A DNA stretch of 64,000 nt from an uncultured Arcobacteraceae bacterium (GTDB lineage: Bacteria; Campylobacterota; Campylobacteria; Campylobacterales; Arcobacteraceae), in NCBI GenBank assembly GCA_964022095.1, contig CAXHZO010000001.1:192001-256000 (forward strand). The letters are read 5' to 3'. The notes beneath the pieces were generated by a model. It was not told where the DNA came from, made no database searches, and was given only the letters and a program-made list of their open reading frames with translations. Below, in pieces: positions 42,582 to 61,382 of the stretch. The number at the start of each line of letters is the position of its first letter. Position 1 is the first letter of the stretch. The position numbers and the translations under genes are program-made.

Positions 42582-43736
42582 TTAATTAGCTAAAGAGTTT
42601 AAAGCCTTAGCACATGTAACTGCTTGTGAGAAATATATCTGAAAATTAAAGCCACCAAGCTCTCCTGTAATATCTAAGCACTCTCCAATAAAGTATAAAT
42701 CTTTTTGTTTAGTACTTTGAAAAGTTTGATGATCTATCTCATCTGTACTTATTCCACCTTTTGTTACCTCTGCTTTTGTATAGCCAAAATTACCTGCTGG
42801 TGGAAACTCATAGTATTTTAAAACTTTTAATTTCTCTTTTTCTTCTTCACTTAATTCACTAACTGATTTATCTTTTACATCAATTGATTTCAAAAACTCT
42901 TCTGTGAATCTTTTAGCAAAGGGAAGTGCTGTTGATATTTTTTTGTTTCCTTTAAAAAAATTCTCTAACTTTTTTTTAGGTAAAAAATCGATTGCAATTT
43001 TTCCCTTTTGCCAATAAAGTGATGTAGTTAAAGTAACAGGTCCAGAACAACCTTTATGAGCAAATAAAAATGAACCTTCAAATCTTTTGTTCTCCACAAA
43101 AGTATTAACCATCATTGAAATACCAGAAAGATTTTTAAACCAAAACTGCTCTTTTTGAACAGTAAATCCAACAAGTGCAGGATCAAGTTTTGTAACAGTA
43201 TGTCCAAACTTTTTAGCAATATCATATGCAATTGAGCTTGCATTTAAAACAGGATAAGACAAACCTCCACTACTAAGTACTACTTTTTTTGCTTCAATTA
43301 TATTTTTATCAGTTTTAATTTTATAGTTTTTATCAAAATCTATATCAATCACTTTTGTATTTAAAAACTTTTTTACATGAGTGATTAATTTTAAAAACAT
43401 ATCTATTACATCTTGTGAAGAGTTACAAAAATATGTTCCTTTCACTATTTTTGGATTTATTTTAGGAATAACATCATTTTTGTTTAAAAACTCGATTAAA
43501 TCATCTTTTGAAAAATTTGATAAAAGTTGTTTAATTAATTTTTCATCACCTAAATAGTTTTTATGGCTTACTAGTTCATTAGTGATATTACATTTTGCTC
43601 CACCACTAACTTTTATTTTTGCTCCAACTTTTGGGTTAGCATCAATTATACAGATATTTTTATATTTTCTTTTATCTAACTTTGATGCAAGCATTAAGCC
43701 ACTTGCACCTGCACCAATAATAGCTATATCGTAGAT
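42582..43736 (-). CDS. HI0933/BaiN-family flavoprotein (NAD(P)/FAD-dependent); apparent ATC start
   Basis: KIKVSGGAKCNITN, GGLSYP, A.VT.GG, GE.LD..G..GG.N; the YDIAIIGAGASG Rossmann motif is in frame upstream of the first ATG (43694). Confidence 0.88.
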   Translation of the reverse strand: MYDIAIIGAGASGLMLASKLDKRKYKNICIIDANPKVGAKIKVSGGAKCNITNELVSHKNYLGDEKLIKQLLSNFSKDDLIEFLNKNDVIPKINPKIVKGTYFCNSSQDVIDMFLKLITHVKKFLNTKVIDIDFDKNYKIKTDKNIIEAKKVVLSSGGLSYPVLNASSIAYDIAKKFGHTVTKLDPALVGFTVQKEQFWFKNLSGISMMVNTFVENKRFEGSFLFAHKGCSGPVTLTTSLYWQKGKIAIDFLPKKKLENFFKGNKKISTALPFAKRFTEEFLKSIDVKDKSVSELSEEEKEKLKVLKYYEFPPAGNFGYTKAEVTKGGISTDEIDHQTFQSTKQKDLYFIGECLDITGELGGFNFQIYFSQAVTCAKALNSLAN

Positions 43737-44989
43737 GAATTATCCTTTTTACAAATAAATCTATTAATTCCATCTATATACTCATACTCTAAACTATAAG
43801 CATTTGCTTTTAAAATATTATGCACAATATATAAACCTAAACCAAAAGAGTTTTTTGATTTATCCTCATTACTAAAAAATGGTTCAAAATATTGTTCTAA
43901 TTCAAACTCTAAAGCTTTTCCATCATTTTCAAAAACTATATCTTCACCTTGTGTTTGTATAGTAACTTTTTTACTATTTGAGTATTTTAATGCATTATCA
44001 ATTAGGTTTTTAACTGCTATTGAAAATAGTTTGAAATTAACATTTATCTTTTTATTTTCGTGATTATAGATAACATCATCTTCTTCTAACATTAAAATAT
44101 CTTGTGCATTTTCTAAAATGTCATTTAAATAGTACATTTTTTTATCAATATTTTTAGTTGAAGAGATCAACTCTTCAATTGATGCAAATTCGTTGATAAG
44201 TGATTCTAGTCTATTAAATACTGATATCATCTTTTCATTGTTTTGTTCATTTTGTTCTAGTTGTGTTAAAAACTTTCCTTTTGTAATTGGAGTTTTTAGT
44301 TCATGCATTATATTTCTAATAAATATATTTCTAGACTCTTTTAAATTTTTTAATTTTAAAGCAGTATTTTTAAATTCCATCCCAAGCTGTGAAACTTCAT
44401 CTTTTGCTTCACTATTACAACACTCAAAATCAAAATTCTCATCACCTAATGTTTTTACTTTATCTTTTAGTATTTTAAGGGGCATTAGTTTTCGTAAAGT
44501 TATTATATAAACTAAAATTATTGTTATAAAAATAATTGCAAATACAAGCATGATATAAATGTTTATATTTATTAAGTTTTCACTTTGGTCAGTATTATCT
44601 TTTATTAATAAAGTCCAACCTTTTCTTTGTGATTTTAAATAAATATAAGTATTATCATTTAAACTTAAAACTCTTAAGATATCTTTTCTTTTTGGATTAA
44701 TTCTTTGTACAACAACTTTTGTTTGGGGGTTATATGTAATTGCATTTATTTTATTAATATTTCTTAGTAGTTCATATCCCATGTCATTTAATCTATCTAA
44801 AAATTTTTGATCAAAACCAACTTTTGATTGCTTATGTACCATTTTTATAGGAAACTCATATCTATCAAATAAAACACTTTCTTTAACTTTATAAGCATGA
44901 GTCATTAATATAAAAAAACTAATGACTACTAATAGTATTGAAATAATAAAACTAACTGTTATTGTAAAAAATATCGATGATCTATTCAT
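43724..44989 (-). CDS. ArsS-family sensor histidine kinase
   Basis: Two TMs, HAMP DEVSQL, RNIMHELKTPITKG, NLIDNALKY, GLGLYI. Confidence 0.93.
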   Translation of the reverse strand: MNRSSIFFTITVSFIISILLVVISFFILMTHAYKVKESVLFDRYEFPIKMVHKQSKVGFDQKFLDRLNDMGYELLRNINKINAITYNPQTKVVVQRINPKRKDILRVLSLNDNTYIYLKSQRKGWTLLIKDNTDQSENLININIYIMLVFAIIFITIILVYIITLRKLMPLKILKDKVKTLGDENFDFECCNSEAKDEVSQLGMEFKNTALKLKNLKESRNIFIRNIMHELKTPITKGKFLTQLEQNEQNNEKMISVFNRLESLINEFASIEELISSTKNIDKKMYYLNDILENAQDILMLEEDDVIYNHENKKINVNFKLFSIAVKNLIDNALKYSNSKKVTIQTQGEDIVFENDGKALEFELEQYFEPFFSNEDKSKNSFGLGLYIVHNILKANAYSLEYEYIDGINRFICKKDNSSTI

Positions 44990-45666
44990 TGTGTAAATTT
45001 ATACCCCATTCCTCTTATTGTATGTAAAAACTGTGGTTCTCTTGGATTTTGTTCTATTTTATGTCTAATTCTATTTATAATTACTGCAAGGGAACCAGAA
45101 CTATCATAATCTTGATTTAGTAAATCAGAATTATCAAATATCTCTTCCCTTGAGATTACAAAACCATCTCTTTTTATAAGCAAAGATAAAACTTCAAACT
45201 CTGCTGCTGTTAGTTTAACATATTTACCATTTTTTGTGATTTCATTTTTATCAATATTAACTTCAAAGATTTTATTTAAGACTTCTTCTTGTTGCATATT
45301 TGAGTGATTAAATCTTCGTAAAACTGTTTTAATCCTAACTTCAAGTTCTCTTGGTTCATATGGCTTTGGTAAATAATCATCTGCCCCTAATTGAAGTGCA
45401 GTTACCTTATCTGTTAAGTCACTTCTAGCACTTGAAATTATAATAGGAATATCAAAGTTTTTGACTATCTCTTTACAAACATCTAATCCATCCATACCAG
45501 GAAGTGTTAAATCAAGTATTATTAAATCAAATTTTTGTATTTTTAAAGTTGAAAGAGCCAAAAATGGCTCTTCAAAATTTGTAACTTCGATATTAAATTG
45601 CTTTAAATATTGTGTTAAAACATCTGCTAATTCTAAATCATCCTCTACCATTGCAATTTGTATCAA
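44986..45666 (-). CDS. OmpR-family response regulator
   Basis: EDD, LDLTLPG.DG, GADDYLPKP, LT..EF, IRG.GY winged helix. Confidence 0.95.
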   Translation of the reverse strand: MIQIAMVEDDLELADVLTQYLKQFNIEVTNFEEPFLALSTLKIQKFDLIILDLTLPGMDGLDVCKEIVKNFDIPIIISSARSDLTDKVTALQLGADDYLPKPYEPRELEVRIKTVLRRFNHSNMQQEEVLNKIFEVNIDKNEITKNGKYVKLTAAEFEVLSLLIKRDGFVISREEIFDNSDLLNQDYDSSGSLAVIINRIRHKIEQNPREPQFLHTIRGMGYKFTQ

Positions 45667-45675
45667 AGTAAATCC

Positions 45676-46110
45676 TTAGCTTCTTTTTTCTTTTTTTAAA
45701 TCCATTAAAACTTTTAATTGTTCTTTTTGTTTAGTTGTTAATAGTTCATAAACTTTTTCAATCATATCTGCTCTTGATTTTAACATATTCTCTCTTTTTT
45801 GACTAGTAATTTCTAAATATTTTTGTTTATCGAAAGAGTTTTTTGTAAATGCTTCATTTACTGTTTTTCTATTTTTCCTATTTTCTAACATTATTTCTTT
45901 GATTTTTGTTTTTTGCTCACTTGTTAAATTAAGTTGTTTAAACATTGCTAAAATATGTCTACCTTTTTTGTGATTGCTTTTATTCATATGATAAGCTTTT
46001 TTAGATTCATACTTTGCACCTTTTTGATTATTCATCATTCCACAATTTGCAAAAACAGATGTTGCAACAACTGAACTTATTAATAAACCTGCTAGTAATT
46101 TTCTTTTCAT
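45676..46110 (-). CDS. Spy/CpxP-family periplasmic chaperone
   Basis: Signal peptide; two LTxxQ motifs (LNLTSEQK, LLTTKQK). Confidence 0.88.
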   Translation of the reverse strand: MKRKLLAGLLISSVVATSVFANCGMMNNQKGAKYESKKAYHMNKSNHKKGRHILAMFKQLNLTSEQKTKIKEIMLENRKNRKTVNEAFTKNSFDKQKYLEITSQKRENMLKSRADMIEKVYELLTTKQKEQLKVLMDLKKEKRS

Positions 46111-51544: not shown

Positions 51545-52252
51545 TCATAATACTAATGTAGATACAAATCCAATTAGTCCACCAAATACTGCACCCCAAA
51601 TAACAAGCCATCCAAGATGTTCTCTTATCATTTCTTGAACAATTTCTTTAACCATTTTAGGAGTTAACTCATCTAATCTTGAACTTACAATTTTACTTAA
51701 TTTACTGTGAACATCTTGTGATAAATCTTTCGATTTTAGACTCTCTGTTAATACATCTTGAAAAGCTTGTGTTTGAGTAATATCAATAATTGAATTTTGA
51801 AGTTTTTTGATAAAAGGTTCCTTTAAAGGTTCAAGTGCAGCTTCACCTCCAAACATTCCTAACATTCCACCAAAACTTGACTCCATAACTGATACTTTTA
51901 ATGAATCATAAGCAGGAGTAAAATCTGTTTTATTTAAAATCTTTTCAAAATCAATTGTGTCTTTTGCACTATTTACTTCAGTTTGAAAAAATTTTGTTAG
52001 ATGCTCTTGAGTAAAAAATTGATTCATCATTAAATTATGAATTGATGTTTTAAACTGAGTGAATTTACTCTCAATTACTCCACTTCCATATAAAAATGGT
52101 ACCTTCTCAAAAAGCATATGTATTGCAAGTGTATTTGTAACTGCACCACTTAAGGCAAAAAGACCCACCATAAAAATAGTGTCATTTCCATTTGAGTAAC
52201 CGTAAGCCATAATTAAAACAGTAATTAAATTTGTAATATCAGATTTATTCAT
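51545..52252 (-). CDS. DUF445-family membrane protein
   Basis: FALSGA.TN.LAI.MLF.KVP.LYGSG, HLGWLV.WG.VFGG.IG. Confidence 0.88.
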   Translation of the reverse strand: MNKSDITNLITVLIMAYGYSNGNDTIFMVGLFALSGAVTNTLAIHMLFEKVPFLYGSGVIESKFTQFKTSIHNLMMNQFFTQEHLTKFFQTEVNSAKDTIDFEKILNKTDFTPAYDSLKVSVMESSFGGMLGMFGGEAALEPLKEPFIKKLQNSIIDITQTQAFQDVLTESLKSKDLSQDVHSKLSKIVSSRLDELTPKMVKEIVQEMIREHLGWLVIWGAVFGGLIGFVSTLVL

Positions 52253-56118: not shown

Positions 56119-56151
56119 ATTCTAAAATCAAAAAATTACTATTTGATAACA
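56119..56151 (-). promoter_or_regulatory. Pho-box-type promoter of phoX
   Basis: TGTTAT-CAAATA-GTAAT-N10-TAGAAT. Confidence 0.75.
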
Positions 56152-56227
56152 TTTATAAAAATGGTGACTTGATTTTTTAAATATAATAATGACAAGAGCT
56201 ACTACTAGGTACTTTAGTGTTATAAAT

Positions 56228-56270
56228 AAACTTATAAAAAGGATACAGTGGTATCCTTATTTTTTAAGTT
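56228..56270 (-). terminator. Intrinsic terminator of the four-gene operon
   Basis: Minus strand AAGGATAC-cact-GTATCCTT followed by TTT; extended AAACTTA/TAAGTTT pairing. Confidence 0.7.
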
Positions 56271-56271
56271 T

Positions 56272-56580
56272 TTAGAATATTTTTATATATTTGTGTTCAG
56301 GAGTTTTTCGTAGATAAAATTCTAATTTTGAAGGTTTTGTATTTGTATTTATTAAAACAGATTTTTTTAAAAAAGGAAATCTTTTATTAGCTAGTTCTTT
56401 ACCGTGCTGATCTAAAAGTTTAATACTATATAAACCACATTTATTTCTACTATTACTACTACATACTATATTTGCTTTTTTTAAACTACTATCATATGAT
56501 ACTTCCAAATCAATTGTGTAACTTACAGGATGAGAAAAAGCTATACTTGCACATAGTAAACTTAATAATATTTTTTTCAT
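56272..56580 (-). CDS. Small periplasmic hypothetical protein (mature N-terminus His-Pro)
   Basis: MKKILLSLLCASIAFS|HP signal peptide; C-x7-C; ATGA overlap with the upstream gene. Confidence 0.75.
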   Translation of the reverse strand: MKKILLSLLCASIAFSHPVSYTIDLEVSYDSSLKKANIVCSSNSRNKCGLYSIKLLDQHGKELANKRFPFLKKSVLINTNTKPSKLEFYLRKTPEHKYIKIF

Positions 56581-57059
56581 TTTACAACTCCAATACAATA
56601 ATCATATTCACTCTTTTGAACATCAGTTTTTAAATTTGTTTTTAAATCATTTAACTTATAAGCAAGCATTATCTTTTCATCCATTGTACATACTGTTGTC
56701 TCACTTGTTAGAACAAAAGGAATATCAAAAACAATGCTTAATCTTTTTTTATCAAATAGTAAATCTACATTTTTAGGTTTTATCTCAAACTCTTTATCTT
56801 CATTTGCTAAAAAGATATTATAGTTATTGTTTTTTAACTTATAAAAATGTGCTTCTAAAAACTGTTTTTTTTCATCTTCATCTAAAACTTTATTTCTATT
56901 TTTATCAAAATCAAACATTAAAATTTTTGAGTTCAATCTATCAAATTTCCATATATTTTTTATATTGCTATGGCTTATTTCTAAACTTGAATCTAAAAAA
57001 TAGTGAGGATGAGCAAAAACATAAACTGTAAATATCAAAAATAAAACTAACTTTTTCAT
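56577..57059 (-). CDS. DUF1007-family periplasmic protein
   Basis: VFA|HPH.F.D N-terminus, W.FD..S, EF-hand-like DFDKNRNKVLDEDE. Confidence 0.8.
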   Translation of the reverse strand: MKKLVLFLIFTVYVFAHPHYFLDSSLEISHSNIKNIWKFDRLNSKILMFDFDKNRNKVLDEDEKKQFLEAHFYKLKNNNYNIFLANEDKEFEIKPKNVDLLFDKKRLSIVFDIPFVLTSETTVCTMDEKIMLAYKLNDLKTNLKTDVQKSEYDYCIGVVK

Positions 57060-57787
57060 ACTAATAACACTGCTCCCATGGCAAATAAAATAGCTATTCC
57101 ACCATAAGAGATTAAATTCATAATTGAACTTAGATTTTTGCTATTTGATTTTTTAATTTGTGTTGATAAAATTGCTGCAAGGGAGATTGTAATTCCCATT
57201 CCAATACTCATGGTAATTGCACTTAAAACTCCTAGATTTATGTACCCTAAAATAATAGAAAAAAGAACAATTGACATAACACCAGGACAAGGTACGATTC
57301 CAATACTCATAGTAACAGCTAATAAACTTTTATTTCCCACTCTTTGAACTTTCTCCTCTTCATTTCTATCTTTATATGTTTCATATAATAAAAATAGTGC
57401 AATTAAAATGATAAATATAGCAGATACTTTATACATGTTTGAATTTATATCTGAGAAATATTTTGTAATTGCACTTTCAAAAAACATATATAAAACAAAT
57501 GTAATTACAAGTGCTGAAATTGTATGTATAACAGACGTTAAAAAACCAGCTTTAAAAGCCTCTTTCATTTTTGCACCTTTTACTAAAAAGTAACTAGCAA
57601 TTACCATTTTTCCATGACCTGGCCCTAAAGCATGAATAAGCCCATAAATAAAAGATACTGCTAAAATATACAAGAACATATTCTCATCACCTGCTTCTAA
57701 TTTATCAAATGAATCACTAATTGTTAAATTAATTTTTTGTTGAGTGCTTATTATAAAATTTAAAAACCCATTATATATATCTGTCAT
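57056..57787 (-). CDS. NiCoT/RcnA-like (HoxN/HupN/NixA family) metal transporter
   Basis: YGLIHALGPGHGK, GIVPCP, MSIGMGITIS; lacks the His-rich loop. Confidence 0.85.
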   Translation of the reverse strand: MTDIYNGFLNFIISTQQKINLTISDSFDKLEAGDENMFLYILAVSFIYGLIHALGPGHGKMVIASYFLVKGAKMKEAFKAGFLTSVIHTISALVITFVLYMFFESAITKYFSDINSNMYKVSAIFIILIALFLLYETYKDRNEEEKVQRVGNKSLLAVTMSIGIVPCPGVMSIVLFSIILGYINLGVLSAITMSIGMGITISLAAILSTQIKKSNSKNLSSIMNLISYGGIAILFAMGAVLLV

Positions 57788-59535
57788 TTTTCAACCTTTT
57801 GTAAATGTGTCATTGTTCCAGCTTTAATATTTTTATGTACATTATTGGAAGGTTTTATATGTACATCTTTTCCGTATATATAGCTTTGTTCATCAACAAT
57901 CACCTTATAAGCTTTATTAAGTTTAATTGCTCTTTTAATACTTGGTAGAATCAAATATGAGATGTCATCTTTTATTTTTTCTAACTCTTGAGTTTTAAAT
58001 TTCCATTCTTGTTTTAATATAACCTCTGGATTTTCTAACTTTGTTATTAAATCTTTTTGTATATTTGAAGTGTTTTTTTCCCAATCTTTTTTAAAAAACT
58101 TTTTCATAACTTCATGATTTGATCTAAACTCATCCCCTGCACTATTGTTTTGTAAATATCTAACATACTCTGTTTGGCCATTATGAAGTTTTTTATCAGG
58201 TATACCTTCTAAACCTTTTTGAGTCCAATGATACCAACCATCTAAATATGAATCAAATTCAAGTTTTCTTTGAAACACATAAGTAGAATCTACAATTGCA
58301 CCAACATTACTATGGCAGCCCATACATGAAAGAGTTTCTTCATAAGTTTGTGGTCTTAAATCACCCTTTTTATCTTCAATAAAACCTTGATAAGTCCATC
58401 CTCTTTTATTTCCAAGACCTTTTTCCATATCACCTAAGTAAACATCTAATCTATCTGGAAAGTCATGTCTTTCTTTTATATCCGCTAAACCTATATTTAT
58501 TAATTGTGAATATGTATTCCAGTGAGTTTTTTTTGCATACCTAAACTCTTTTAATCTTGAAGACATTTTTATTTTTTCATCTTTATCGAAATCTATATAT
58601 CTAACAGTATGCGCAAATTCAGTTCCAATAGGATAAAGTCCTGGAGCAATTTTTATTTTATTTTCAAGTAAAAGTTTTTTTGCAAAACCTACATAAGTCA
58701 TTGAAAAATCATAGATTCTTCTAGTTTTAAAATCATACTTTGGTTTTATCCAATTAAACACAATTTGTGAAGCAATATCTAATTTGCCATTTTGGTTTAA
58801 ATCTACACCAAATTTGTTTTCATCAGTTTTAGGAATATCTATTGTTTTTTGTTTTATTAGTGATTCAACTATTAAAAGATTGATTTTATAAACATCTAAA
58901 TCAAACTCACCATTTTCATCAGTTTGAAACTTTTTTGAAAGTCTAATTAGAACATCATCAGTACTACCATTTGTTGGCCAGAATGTTCCTAAAAATGGTT
59001 GATATGCAAAGGCTCTCCATCCTGAGTATTTATCATTGTTTGTTTTATCGAAACCTTGTGAATCAAAATTAAAATTAATATCAGGAATATATCCATCCCA
59101 TTTTCCATTGTTATTAAAATCCCAATTTTTATTTAAATTTTCAAGTTTTGATTTTAAGATAATTTGACCATCGCTATTTTTATAATTATCTTCTCTTATA
59201 TATTTTAAAATAGCTTCGTTACTTATTTTTTCAATATCTTTTGTTCTATCTTTAAATAAGTTTGTCCATTTGTTTTTTAATGCAGGGGAAGGGAAATCAT
59301 ACCCTTCTTGTAAATCAGCATCTAAAAGTGTGTAATTTGGTTCTTTATTTTTAACATGACATGAAAAACATGGGTTATGCAAAATGTTTTCATTAATATC
59401 ATTTACTGTTTTAGTATAGCATTGACTTGGGATGTATGCTGTTTTATTATATAGCTTTTTTGACTTTAAATCTAACTCTTTACTACACAGAATATTTAGC
59501 AATAAAATACTAAACACCATAATTATTTTAAACAT
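57784..59535 (-). CDS. Exported 583-aa protein with two c-type haem motifs
   Basis: Hydrophobic N-terminal signal; CFSCH and CMGCH; also QCYTKT, FWPTNGSTDDVLIRL, GFIED..G.LRPQ. Confidence 0.8.
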   Translation of the reverse strand: MFKIIMVFSILLLNILCSKELDLKSKKLYNKTAYIPSQCYTKTVNDINENILHNPCFSCHVKNKEPNYTLLDADLQEGYDFPSPALKNKWTNLFKDRTKDIEKISNEAILKYIREDNYKNSDGQIILKSKLENLNKNWDFNNNGKWDGYIPDINFNFDSQGFDKTNNDKYSGWRAFAYQPFLGTFWPTNGSTDDVLIRLSKKFQTDENGEFDLDVYKINLLIVESLIKQKTIDIPKTDENKFGVDLNQNGKLDIASQIVFNWIKPKYDFKTRRIYDFSMTYVGFAKKLLLENKIKIAPGLYPIGTEFAHTVRYIDFDKDEKIKMSSRLKEFRYAKKTHWNTYSQLINIGLADIKERHDFPDRLDVYLGDMEKGLGNKRGWTYQGFIEDKKGDLRPQTYEETLSCMGCHSNVGAIVDSTYVFQRKLEFDSYLDGWYHWTQKGLEGIPDKKLHNGQTEYVRYLQNNSAGDEFRSNHEVMKKFFKKDWEKNTSNIQKDLITKLENPEVILKQEWKFKTQELEKIKDDISYLILPSIKRAIKLNKAYKVIVDEQSYIYGKDVHIKPSNNVHKNIKAGTMTHLQKVEK

Positions 59536-59560
59536 ATATTTTCCTTCAAATTTAAAGGCA

Positions 59561-59593
59561 ATTATAATTTCAAATAATTACAAGTTGATAACA
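59561..59593 (-). promoter_or_regulatory. Pho-box-type promoter of the cytochrome/NiCoT operon
   Basis: TGTTAT-CAACTT-GTAAT-N10-TATAAT, near-identical to the phoX promoter. Confidence 0.75.
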
Positions 59594-59617
59594 GCCTCAA
59601 AGTGGTTACTTTAAAAG

Positions 59618-59669: not shown

Positions 59670-61382
59670 ATGATAGATGTACAAAAAGAGATAGAAAAAA
59701 AGTTTCCAAAGATAAAAACAAAACAGAACTTTTTGAAAAAATCTTTATTTAAAGTGGCTAAGAAAATAGTTCATGAAGACTCTATAAACAATTTTTTACA
59801 ACAAAATTCACACCTAAAAGGCTTTGATTTTGTTGATGCGGTTTTAGACTATTTTGATTTTGATTATACAGCTTCTAGTAATGATATTCAAAACATTCCT
59901 TCAAGTGGTAAAGTTGTGATAATTGCAAATCATCCATTAGGTGGACTTGATGCTTTATGCTTATTAAGACTAGTTGGTCAAGTTAGAAAAGATGTAAAAA
60001 TTGTAGCTAATGATTTTTTAGTTGGATTTGAGGCTTTAAGCTCACTTTTTATTCCAATTGACAATTATAAAATGAAGCAATCAAAACAGGATATAAAAAA
60101 TATATATGAAGCTTTAAATAATGAAGAAGCAATCATAATTTTTCCTGCTGGAGAAGTTAGTCGTGCTACTTCAAAAGGAATTAAAGATCCAAATTGGAAC
60201 AAAGGATTTTTAAATTTTGCGAAAAATACAAATTCACCTATTTTGCCAATTTTTTTAAATGCTAAAAACTCTAAGACATTTTATACAATTTCTTTAATAA
60301 ACAAAACATTTTCAACTTTACTTTTATCAAATGAAATGTTTAATAAAAAATCAAAAAGAATAAATATAAAAATTGGAAAAATTATTCCAAATGAAAATAT
60401 TTTACCAAAGGGATTAGATAAAAAATATGTTTTAAATCTATATAGAAAACATCTATACTCATTAAAAAAAGGGAAGAAGTCTTTTTTTGAAACACAAAGT
60501 GCAATTGCCCATCCAGTAAATAGAAAAGATTTATTAAGTGAGCTTAAAAACTCTAAACTAATAGGTCAAACAAGCGATGGTAAAAAAATCTATTTATATG
60601 ATTATGTAGAAGATTCAATTGTACTAAAAGAGCTAGGAAGACTAAGAGAATTGTCTTTTAGAAAAGTTGGGGAAGGTATTAATAAAAAAAGAGACACAGA
60701 TAAGTATGATATTTACTACCAACATATTATTTTATGGGATGAGAATGACTTAGAAATAGTTGGTTCATATAGAATTGGTAATAGTGATTTTATATTTAAA
60801 AATATTGGAGTAAAAGGTTTTTATTCATATAATTTATTTAAATACAATGAAGAGTTTACACCTTATTTAAAAAATTCAATTGAGCTTGGAAGAAGTTTTG
60901 TTCAGCCAAAGTATTGGGGAACTAGAGCACTTGATTATCTATGGTTTGGAATTGGAGCTTATTTAAAAACTAATCCACAAATAAAATATATGTTTGGTCC
61001 CGTTTCACTTAGTGCAACTTATCCAAAAACTGCAAAAGATTTATTAGTATTTTATTATAAGCACTATTTTGGAGAGAGTAAACAACTTGTAAATTCAACA
61101 CAACCTTATCAATTTTCTAATAAACAATCAGAAATAAAACAACTTTTTAATTTAGAAGATAGAAAAAAAGATTTTAAAGTACTAAAAGCAAGTTTAGCAA
61201 ATATGAATGTTTCTGTACCAACTTTATATAAACAATATAGCGACATAGCACAAGATGGTGGTGTTAAATTTTTAGGATTTAATATTGATAAAGATTTTAA
61301 TGATTGTATCGATGGATTTATATTAGTAGAAGTAGATAAAATTAAAGATACTGCAAGAAAAAGATATATAGATAAAGAGTAA
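59670..61382 (+). CDS. olsF: Bifunctional acyltransferase (PlsC-like + GNAT), OlsF-like ornithine-lipid synthase
   Basis: ANHPLGGLD and FPAGEV acyltransferase motifs; C-terminal GRLRE.SFR.VGEG..DKYD, ELGRSFV, LW.GIG, P.LYKQY (OlsB-like GNAT). Confidence 0.8.
   Translation: MIDVQKEIEKKFPKIKTKQNFLKKSLFKVAKKIVHEDSINNFLQQNSHLKGFDFVDAVLDYFDFDYTASSNDIQNIPSSGKVVIIANHPLGGLDALCLLRLVGQVRKDVKIVANDFLVGFEALSSLFIPIDNYKMKQSKQDIKNIYEALNNEEAIIIFPAGEVSRATSKGIKDPNWNKGFLNFAKNTNSPILPIFLNAKNSKTFYTISLINKTFSTLLLSNEMFNKKSKRINIKIGKIIPNENILPKGLDKKYVLNLYRKHLYSLKKGKKSFFETQSAIAHPVNRKDLLSELKNSKLIGQTSDGKKIYLYDYVEDSIVLKELGRLRELSFRKVGEGINKKRDTDKYDIYYQHIILWDENDLEIVGSYRIGNSDFIFKNIGVKGFYSYNLFKYNEEFTPYLKNSIELGRSFVQPKYWGTRALDYLWFGIGAYLKTNPQIKYMFGPVSLSATYPKTAKDLLVFYYKHYFGESKQLVNSTQPYQFSNKQSEIKQLFNLEDRKKDFKVLKASLANMNVSVPTLYKQYSDIAQDGGVKFLGFNIDKDFNDCIDGFILVEVDKIKDTARKRYIDKE

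Follow-up and report, generated by a model that had tools for sequence, protein, structure and literature searches.

In a 64,000-nucleotide (nt) stretch of DNA from an uncultured bacterium of the family Arcobacteraceae (Campylobacterota; assembly GCA_964022095.1, contig CAXHZO010000001.1, positions 192,001 to 256,000 of the forward strand), referred to below as the window, a four-gene operon lies beside a gene for a divergent PhoX-like phosphatase. The first gene of the operon encodes an exported protein of 583 amino acids (aa) with two CxxCH motifs, a representative of the family PF27085 (Aq_1262) and here called the cytochrome. This protein is a specific genomic, and sometimes fusion, partner of PhoX-like phosphatases that are exported through the general secretory (Sec) route or as lipoproteins and keep the metal-site motifs of the enzyme, a conclusion firmly supported by gene neighbourhoods across at least six phyla. 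That it is a dedicated partner of PhoX we hold to be very probable, whereas the fuller reading that these sequences suggest, in which the di-haem protein matures or maintains the cofactor of Sec-exported PhoX outside the cytoplasm, stands at about an even chance. The host genome measures 2.57 Mb, and the window has a G+C content of about 27%.

In oceans and soils PhoX is one of the main phosphate-releasing enzymes, and because it needs iron it connects the cycling of phosphorus with that of iron. Its export by twin-arginine translocation (Tat), like that of PhoD, has been argued to serve the insertion of iron in the cytoplasm (Rodriguez et al., PMC4223295), a view repeated in a 2025 study (PMC12594817). 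The comparisons described here delimit a large clade of PhoX-like proteins that breaks this Tat rule and name a gene that almost always travels with the clade; because a two-haem protein family almost always adjoins divergent PhoX, the data suggest that this type of phosphatase needs a redox helper so far uncharacterised.

The cytochrome family comprises 503 clusters at 50% identity in an exhaustive homologue search (E up to 0.001), and more than 590 species-level genomes carry the gene in a profile scan of genome contigs. Neighbourhoods were compared in the best 80 of 591 confirmed loci, found with a 13-sequence alignment as profile in contigs with one genome per species and drawn from Campylobacterota, Deferribacterota, Gamma- and Alphaproteobacteria, Geobacter and its kin, Leptospira, Holophaga and Bacteroidota; the loci nearest to that of the window are from Arcobacteraceae, and one operon protein has its closest named relative in Malaciobacter. 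A PhoX-like gene adjoins the cytochrome gene in 79 of the 80 loci, upstream on the same strand in 71, divergently in five and downstream in three, and the sole locus without phoX has no upstream DNA. The three downstream cases are those in which phoX lies behind the three extra genes that complete the operon in the window, and the arrangement of the window, with the operon ahead of phoX, is not the general one: phoX precedes the cytochrome gene in most loci. The two genes are separated by at most about 500 nt in 62 of the 80 loci, and the wider gaps are accounted for by long PhoX forms, by an inserted phytase-like gene (L049) or by four intervening genes (L066). Such a phytase-like beta-propeller gene (PF13449) occurs between phoX and the cytochrome gene in two loci (L049, 2263-3471; L016, 7763-8971).

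Two further genome sets give the linkage its specificity. Among 41 close relatives, eight possess the cytochrome, and in all seven other than the window genome it adjoins a homologue of the window PhoX-like protein. In an evenly drawn sample of 301 genomes of the phylum, the PhoX family PF05787 is present in 47, of which 25 have canonical or fragmentary canonical forms and 22 the divergent class. The cytochrome family occurs in 19 of the 22 genomes with divergent PhoX, always within 3 kb, and in none of the 25 with canonical PhoX; four of the 19 cytochromes are distant members, and the two of these that were inspected are full length, have two CxxCH motifs and stand directly behind the PhoX-like gene. 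Among the close relatives, genomes G007 and G008 exemplify the other side, having canonical full-length PhoX (E about 1e-130) with SRRT(V/L)(L/I)KG Tat signals and no cytochrome. Correspondingly, an S/T-R-R motif was found in none of 68 full-length PhoX-like proteins adjacent to a cytochrome, and a lipobox-like motif in 57 of them. The original prediction had proposed comparing the co-occurrence of the 583-aa family with Sec-type and Tat-type PhoX, and the outcome, 79 of 80 loci and 19 of 22 against none of 25 genomes, is strongly positive.

Fusions point the same way. Among 29 homologues longer than 1021 aa, three combine PF05787 and PF27085, and the order PhoX-like then Aq_1262 in one chain was confirmed for two of them (P0296, P0317); a cytochrome-d1-like propeller is carried by two other homologues. 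The trees of the PhoX-like proteins and of the cytochromes are correlated (mirror-tree r 0.53 over 63 pairs, permutation maximum 0.11), which is weak support, as shared species history alone could yield it. In Desulfuromonadota, Leptospira, Holophaga and others the cytochrome has a C-terminal PD40 propeller (about 1015-1160 aa in all) with phoX still adjacent (P0297-P0323; L070, L074, L082, L087, L090).

The phosphatase partner shares with canonical Tat-exported PhoX, as represented by the Pseudomonas fluorescens structures 3zwu and 4amf and by the Campylobacter jejuni type, its Pfam family, the cysteine and acidic metal-site motifs and a phosphate-starvation context. It differs in matching only positions of about 150 to 500 of PF05787, with 50-95 bits against the 430-600 bits of canonical PhoX, in having a Sec or lipoprotein signal in place of the twin-arginine signal, in being accompanied by a haem partner, and in forming a clade at least 3.2 substitutions per site away. 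The 1254-aa protein of the window begins with a lipoprotein signal (...FTFVGC, lipobox FVGC) and, as the original prediction had noted, has no twin arginine; it consists of some 190 N-terminal residues without a family, a PhoX-like part at about 186-780 and, unlike canonical PhoX, a fused choice-of-anchor I domain at 786-1253 (choice_anch_I, 277.9 bits). PF05787 scores 78.8 bits on its gene in a six-frame genome search, above the cut-off, and is not listed by an hmmscan of the whole protein at E 0.01; the PDB PhoX 3zwu matches the protein at E 4e-5. Stand-alone relatives of the clade (about 600 aa) all pass PF05787 (16 of 16, 63-88 bits against a cut-off of 24). When a profile of 21 clade members is aligned to the PDB PhoX, the elements C-A-x-x-T-P-W...E-E, GW.E, GR..HE, DD, E.T and QHP are all kept, and the invariant cysteine of the clade falls on Cys175 in 4amf numbering (Cys179 in 3zwu numbering). 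The aligned acidic motif residues and the cysteine are presumably metal ligands, the cysteine binding iron, and by these motifs the PhoX-like partner looks catalytic. A genome of the same genus has two long PhoX-like paralogues in tandem (L012, 12648-16679 and 16916-19999), the second of which is preceded by a separate copy of the promoter motif described below.

In translation the cytochrome has CFSCH at residues 56-60 and CMGCH at 404-408, following a hydrophobic N-terminal signal, and so agrees with the exported two-CxxCH protein that had been predicted. A precomputed PF27085 match is present on all 120 homologues listed (52-82% identity), which are annotated as 'hypothetical' or 'cytochrome c domain-containing', and the Atlas clusters nearest to the protein are 100% PF27085, under the Atlas family name Aq_1262; membership of the 583-aa protein in this family, read from homologues and clusters rather than scored directly, is near certain. 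Across 177 aligned homologues both CxxCH motifs are kept in 171-175, and the two motifs, C39 and H309 in 170-175, while 74 of 75 full-length PhoX-adjacent cytochromes contain at least two CxxCH.

An AlphaFold (AF2) model built from a 44-sequence alignment is confident (predicted local distance difference test, pLDDT, 94.1; predicted template modelling score, pTM, 0.92), so that the structural comparison suggested with the original prediction could be made, yet it gave no clear fold match. Foldseek against the PDB returned nothing at E 0.001 or better (best E 0.096), and a PDB sequence search at E up to 1 returned chance-level rows only. An independent fold search found eight chains at Z of at least 2, of which the top five all belong to the cytochrome P460/c'-beta type (e.g. 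PDB 6hiu, 8brk, 7s5o, 2je3, 6amg; Z 3.9-5.3), aligned over 129-137 residues within model residues of about 127-430 at a root-mean-square deviation of 3.4-5.1 Å. These are the only recurring fold matches; nearly the whole of each chain is covered, and, as in that family, the CxxCH is close to the domain end. Pfam cytochrome P460 (PF16694) matches residues 371-413 below threshold (20.5 bits against a cut-off of 27, E 6.6e-4), and c550 is the other sub-threshold match in Pfam and NCBIfam. Relative to P460/c'-beta, the modelled domain is enlarged by big insertions and has as its neighbours a second haem motif and a C-terminal part that is helical. Given the weak likeness, we read the architecture as a haem motif at the N-terminus, followed by a P460/c'-beta-like haem domain that is much expanded and by the helical part. 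The protein is not filed in the P460/c'-beta family, and PF27085 is an uncharacterised haem-protein family without a solved relative. Two conserved loops rich in Asp, Asn and Gly, at residues of about 138-152 (WDFNNNGKWDGYIPD) and 243-253 (VDLNQNGKLD), resemble calcium-binding loops in their sequence.

A pairing of the same general kind has been described in Flavobacterium, and the one reported here is a variant of it with a PF27085 partner. In Flavobacterium johnsoniae the tabulated low-phosphate response includes a lipoprotein PhoX_like protein, Fjoh_2478, and a 'MauG_like' protein, Fjoh_2477 (pf03150), in one genomic context and both strongly induced at low inorganic phosphate (Lidbury et al. 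2020, PMC8115612, Table 1). This phoX by itself was reported to be inactive in Pseudomonas putida; the authors place it in one operon with the MauG-like gene in all Flavobacterium genomes, suggest that it may need a cofactor and that PhoX depends on the haem protein for its activity, and cite MauG as the enzyme that oxidatively completes the methylamine dehydrogenase cofactor (Lidbury et al. 2022, PMC8812569). The Fjoh_2478/Fjoh_2477 system resembles that of the window in joining a divergent, non-Tat lipoprotein PhoX to an exported two-haem protein in one operon, although the low-phosphate response was measured in Flavobacterium and is motif-based here; the likeness of the two PhoX types is drawn from the published description rather than from a comparison of sequences. 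The partners differ, Fjoh_2477 being a MauG-like di-haem cytochrome c peroxidase (CCP) of family PF03150 whereas PF27085 occurs in many more phyla.

MauG and the bacterial di-haem CCPs are also periplasmic, carry two c-type haems and are encoded beside the enzyme that they are proposed to mature. The window protein is larger than MauG at 583 aa, would have one haem in a beta-sheet P460-like domain according to the model, and would have a metal cluster rather than a tryptophan pair as its target. Homology to MauG or CCP was rejected, there being no sequence match: PF03150 was not found at E up to 0.01 in Pfam, and no CCP or MauG chain turned up when PDB sequences were searched (E up to 1) or among the fold matches of the model, where for 583 residues a missing match is not proof. 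The idea that a MauG-like gene regularly stands beside the pair was likewise discarded, with no other CxxCH open reading frame (ORF) directly adjacent in the 80 loci. The original prediction knew of no description of this system, and for PF27085 (Aq_1262) itself a literature search of main texts found no paper; a comparable case, in which a lipoprotein PhoX is paired with a MauG-like protein, is nevertheless already in print (PMC8115612, PMC8812569).

The three remaining genes of the operon encode a permease, a DUF1007 protein and a small protein. The 243-aa permease scores 62.1 bits for Pfam NicO (cut-off 27.7) and 53.1 bits for NCBIfam RcnA (PRK10019), under the cut-off of 195; the motif HALGPGHGK is present in seven of eight orthologues and the central loop is free of His in seven of eight, which upholds the predicted HALGPGHGK permease without a His-loop. 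The 160-aa protein scores 64.8 bits for DUF1007 (PF06226, cut-off 27) over profile positions 3-122 of 211. Its sequence reads ...VFA|HPHYF, with cleavage presumed at the bar and a predicted mature N-terminus of HPHYFLD; HPHxFxD is invariant or nearly so among 20 aligned DUF1007 sequences, in which two Cys are invariant. It also has a conserved EF-hand-like loop at residues 52-63 (DKNRNKVLDEDE; D52, N54, N56, D60, E63), which hints at calcium binding and is of interest as PhoX needs calcium. The small protein, without a Pfam or NCBIfam match, reads ...AFS|HPVSY, again with a presumed cleavage site, predicted to leave HPVSYTIDL as the mature N-terminus; HPVSY follows a hydrophobic leader in seven of seven orthologues, the N-terminus resembles that of DUF1007 (BLASTP E 5e-4), and generic Atlas leads indicate that the protein probably folds as a small beta-sandwich. 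Both His-Pro ends of the original prediction are thus found as described, and conserved. Genes of the NicO/RcnA and DUF1007 families (COG2215/COG3683) are usually adjacent, and the window proteins, which pass both Pfam cut-offs, conform to this; they depart from such pairs in the permease having no His-rich loop and a sub-cut-off RcnA score, in the shortness of the DUF1007 protein and in their place in a Pho-type operon behind the cytochrome gene. A search of the literature on DUF1007 or COG3683/COG2215 found nothing on function, nor any link to phosphate.

The triad is a lineage-specific addition. Behind the cytochrome gene, a NicO-like gene is present in 8 of the 80 loci and the DUF1007 and small genes in 7 each; these loci all come from Arcobacteraceae or close kin. 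Close orthologues of the window DUF1007 were found only in five relatives with the same operon. The proposal of one conserved, PhoX-linked system of four genes was therefore rejected, the cytochrome alone being tied to PhoX across phyla. In other loci the place next after the cytochrome gene is taken by a gene for a PhoA-type phosphatase, a metallophosphoesterase, OlsF, a TonB-dependent receptor, an MntP-like protein or a Na/Ca exchanger. Putative cation movers occupy this place, as the NicO-like gene does here, in three unrelated lineages, as MntP-like genes (L076, 9704-10387, and L069, 6281-7033; about 29 bits, barely above the cut-off) and as a Na/Ca exchanger gene (L047, 9674-10654), a recurrence that is suggestive in small numbers.

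Judged by its upstream motifs and neighbours, the island formed by olsF, the operon and phoX is likely controlled by phosphate starvation. The regions upstream of the operon and of phoX align over about 55 nt at about 73% identity (local score 52 against 30 +/- 5 in shuffles, a score reached by 2 shuffles out of 1000 and by 3 out of 1000 real low-GC genome segments); they have a two-part motif in common, and to call the two promoters nearly identical, as was done at first, overstates the case. A common core, AGT(A/C)ACCA-N-TGT(T/A)ATCA, also lies 45 nt before pstS, where the half-sites are 11 bp apart and Pho-box-like. The motif is kept in a genome of the same genus (L012) before the cytochrome gene and before the second PhoX paralogue, and in 10 of 77 loci an 11-bp-phased pattern, TGTMAY-N5-TGTMAY, is present no more than 250 nt ahead of the phoX-like or the cytochrome gene (background 0.003 per 270 nt). 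The neighbours across loci include olsF, PhoA, phytase-like, nuclease, pst and phoU genes. Pho-type regulation, as originally proposed, thus gains sequence-level backing from the motif common to pstS and from the divergent olsF gene, whose product makes a phosphorus-free lipid; one Pho-box-like motif in the 134-bp control region between them may serve both olsF and the operon. In 8 of the 80 loci an olsF gene is found no more than three genes from the PhoX/cytochrome pair. A partial olsF-like ORF adjoins the canonical Tat-PhoX of G008 (L099), and in two genomes with divergent PhoX and no cytochrome, G319 (L120) and G240 (L121), the PhoX-like gene sits amid pstSCAB-phoU or two-component clusters with pst, phoU and olsF genes.

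How the cytochrome might serve its partner can be outlined from the export route. Divergent PhoX would leave the cell unfolded through Sec, mostly as a lipoprotein, and not folded through Tat; a Sec-exported PhoX could not receive its Fe(III)-oxo-Ca cofactor in the cytoplasm, and for this reason the haem protein would act on it outside. Most likely it would oxidise bound Fe(II) to Fe(III), or otherwise build or maintain the cluster, as MauG matures its partner, with the second haem placed by the model in a pocket of P460/c'-beta-like type, to which small ligands usually have access. In Arcobacteraceae the NicO-type permease, the DUF1007 protein with its N-terminal HPH and EF-hand-like loop, and the small His-Pro protein would probably move or hand over a divalent metal for PhoX. 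These parts differ in how far we trust them. That maturation or maintenance of the cofactor is the task of the cytochrome, by analogy with the role proposed for the MauG-like partner, has slightly less than an even chance in our estimate, and that the three extra genes serve the metallation of PhoX is put forward tentatively. The complete extracytoplasmic pathway, in which an N-terminal haem and a P460-like catalytic haem, an architecture without precedent, would oxidise PhoX-bound Fe(II) and build an Fe(III)2-oxo-Ca3 cluster, with NicO exporting the metal and the DUF1007 and small His-Pro proteins handing it over in Arcobacteraceae, and which would have evolved at least twice, with Aq_1262 and with MauG-like proteins, is unlikely to be right in every part. 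The fuller model of the original prediction, in which the permease exports the metal, the His-Pro proteins act as its chaperones and the cytochrome sets its redox state, is possible within Arcobacteraceae and cannot be a general system.

Were the haem protein needed for activity, this would explain the failure of such PhoX genes in foreign hosts, as reported for Flavobacterium phoX (PMC8812569), would affect the reading of phoX counts in metagenomes, and would give a way into the assembly of a mixed Fe-Ca cluster outside the cell.

Several observations weigh against this account. The 80 loci were the ones closest to the query in sequence, and many of them are mutually related. Three genomes with divergent PhoX, all 99-100% complete (G217, G240, G319), have no Aq_1262 homologue even when searched with a 44-sequence profile, and the PhoX-like protein of G240 is nested among paired ones in the tree; because 3 of the 22 divergent-PhoX genomes are without a homologue, the helper is dispensable or replaceable in some lineages. 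One homologue, P0150, has a PF04185 phosphoesterase fused to Aq_1262, a fusion that ill fits a helper specific to the PhoX cluster, the PF04185 family not being known to use iron; the TolB-like PD40 propeller carried by 27 of the 29 long homologues is not accounted for by this reading. As regards the protein itself, we infer its two c-type haems from its motifs, and haem binding, redox partner and oxidant are likewise presumed; no Met is conserved above 76% in the 177 aligned homologues, hence no conserved Met ligand, and the P460 likeness of the model is weak (Z at most 5.3, Foldseek E about 0.1 at best, Pfam score below its cut-off). In 72 of the 80 loci there is no NicO-like, DUF1007 or small gene, and distant DUF1007 paralogues occur in six relatives that match neither the cytochrome nor PF05787. 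The two-part promoter motif was matched by a pattern derived from the very sites that it then finds, three in the 2.57-Mb genome, ahead of the operon, of phoX and of pstS, and none in five shuffles; a relaxed pattern is not enriched genome-wide (8 matches against 6-16 in shuffles).

The alternative that survives best concerns the extra genes, which may form an ordinary trace-metal transporter of the Ni/Co/Zn type, attached here by chance and unrelated to PhoX, a possibility we regard as real if on the doubtful side. It is favoured by the presence of the three genes in only 8 of the 80 loci, by the wide occurrence of the DUF1007 and NicO families outside this context and by the silence of the literature searched on any link of these families to phosphate, but it sits less easily with the ATGA overlaps that couple the three genes translationally to the cytochrome gene, with the restriction of close orthologues of this DUF1007 to the five relatives that have the same operon, and with the other putative cation movers found behind the cytochrome gene (MntP-like in L076 and L069, Na/Ca exchanger in L047).

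For the cytochrome itself three rivals to cofactor maturation were weighed, none of them probable, and they are taken in falling order. The haem protein could be a periplasmic peroxidase-like enzyme, or one that handles NO or sulfide, and protect or re-activate the exposed Fe(III)-thiolate site of a surface-tethered PhoX rather than assemble it. P460/c'-beta haem domains bind NO and other small ligands, and the modelled haem domain weakly resembles this type; many hosts come from sulfidic or micro-oxic habitats (Sulfurimonas, Sulfurovum, Thiomicrorhabdus, Thiothrix, Geobacter), and absence from 3 of 22 divergent-PhoX genomes would fit a conditional helper. The family is also found, however, in aerobic marine heterotrophs (Microbulbifer, Catenovulum, Pseudoalteromonas, Thalassolituus), and neither fusion to PhoX nor a link with it in 79 of 80 loci is what one would expect of a general detoxifier, so that a role in guard or repair appears improbable. 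Slightly less probable still is a two-subunit redox enzyme, in which the PhoX-like propeller would oxidise phosphite or another reduced phosphorus compound, with the electrons carried off by the di-haem protein. The tight gene pair and the fusions do resemble a catalytic subunit with a cytochrome subunit, the clade is far removed from canonical PhoX (the at least 3.2 substitutions per site given above), and weak phosphite oxidation has been reported for P. fluorescens PhoX (PMC12704751), but the activity reported is very low, that article mentions no cytochrome, the hydrolytic metal-site motifs are all kept and the neighbours are ordinary phosphoester-scavenging genes. Least probable is an independent role in mobilising phosphorus, with the cytochrome acting on the substrate pool, for example by reducing phosphate-holding Fe(III) minerals or by binding a ligand, and merely co-regulated with PhoX: although the cytochrome is also fused to the PF04185 phosphatase type and to PD40 propellers and is located in islands with several other phosphatases, it pairs specifically with one PhoX clade and is not present in the 25 canonical-PhoX genomes, and no sign was seen here of a cytochrome on the outer cell face. 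Maturation or maintenance of the PhoX cofactor is accordingly the role that we prefer for the cytochrome.

The layout of the island is given in Table 1. The original picture of four genes chained by ATGA stop/start overlaps and closed by a hairpin agrees with the coordinates, the sequence and the predicted fold. The smallest ORF spans 56272-56598, and the ATG at 56580 is its likelier start, giving 102 aa (MKKILL...); with that start all three junctions become ATGA overlaps (57784-57787, 57056-57059, 56577-56580). None of 200 shuffles folds as well as the hairpin read from 56258 to 56239; because the T-run 3' of it is interrupted, a terminator scan flagged the hairpin on the opposite strand only.

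Table 1. Features of the olsF, operon and phoX island, with positions in the window.
Feature	Position	Strand	Basis or remark
DUF445 membrane protein	51545..52252	-	Pfam DUF445, 51 bits; downstream of long PhoX form
PhoX-like lipoprotein, 1254 aa	52317..56081	-	Lipobox, PF05787 match, PDB 3zwu match
Matching motif AGTCACCA-N10-TGTTATCA	56144..56169	-	62 nt before ATG of PhoX-like gene
Terminator-like hairpin closing the four-gene unit	56239..56258	-	Predicted fold -13.4 kcal/mol, z -4.4
Small exported His-Pro protein, 102 aa	56272..56580	-	ORF; no family
Periplasmic DUF1007 protein, 160 aa	56577..57059	-	Pfam DUF1007 above cut-off
NicO/RcnA-superfamily permease, 243 aa	57056..57787	-	Pfam NicO above cut-off
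Exported di-haem c-type protein of PF27085 (Aq_1262 family), 583 aa	57784..59535	-	ORF; PF27085 homologues
Two-part Pho-box-like motif AGTAACCA-N9-TGTTATCA	59586..59610	-	50 nt before ATG of 583-aa gene, in 134-bp region common with olsF
olsF, bifunctional ornithine lipid synthase	59670..61382	+	NCBIfam NF052615, E 3.6e-252, 838 bits against cut-off 620

About 6 kb from the island, at 43724-46110 on the minus strand of the window, lie genes for an ArsS-family sensor kinase, an OmpR-type response regulator and a Spy/CpxP-like periplasmic chaperone; no evidence was found that they control the island. The DUF445 gene accompanies the long PhoX form in other loci as well (L013, L014, L017, L019-L021, L052, L062), its membrane protein being an uncertain member of the PhoX/cytochrome system. 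In the same-genus genome G001 an IS110-family transposase gene (L012, 7807-9006, plus strand) stands between olsF and the cytochrome gene, directly upstream of the conserved promoter motif.

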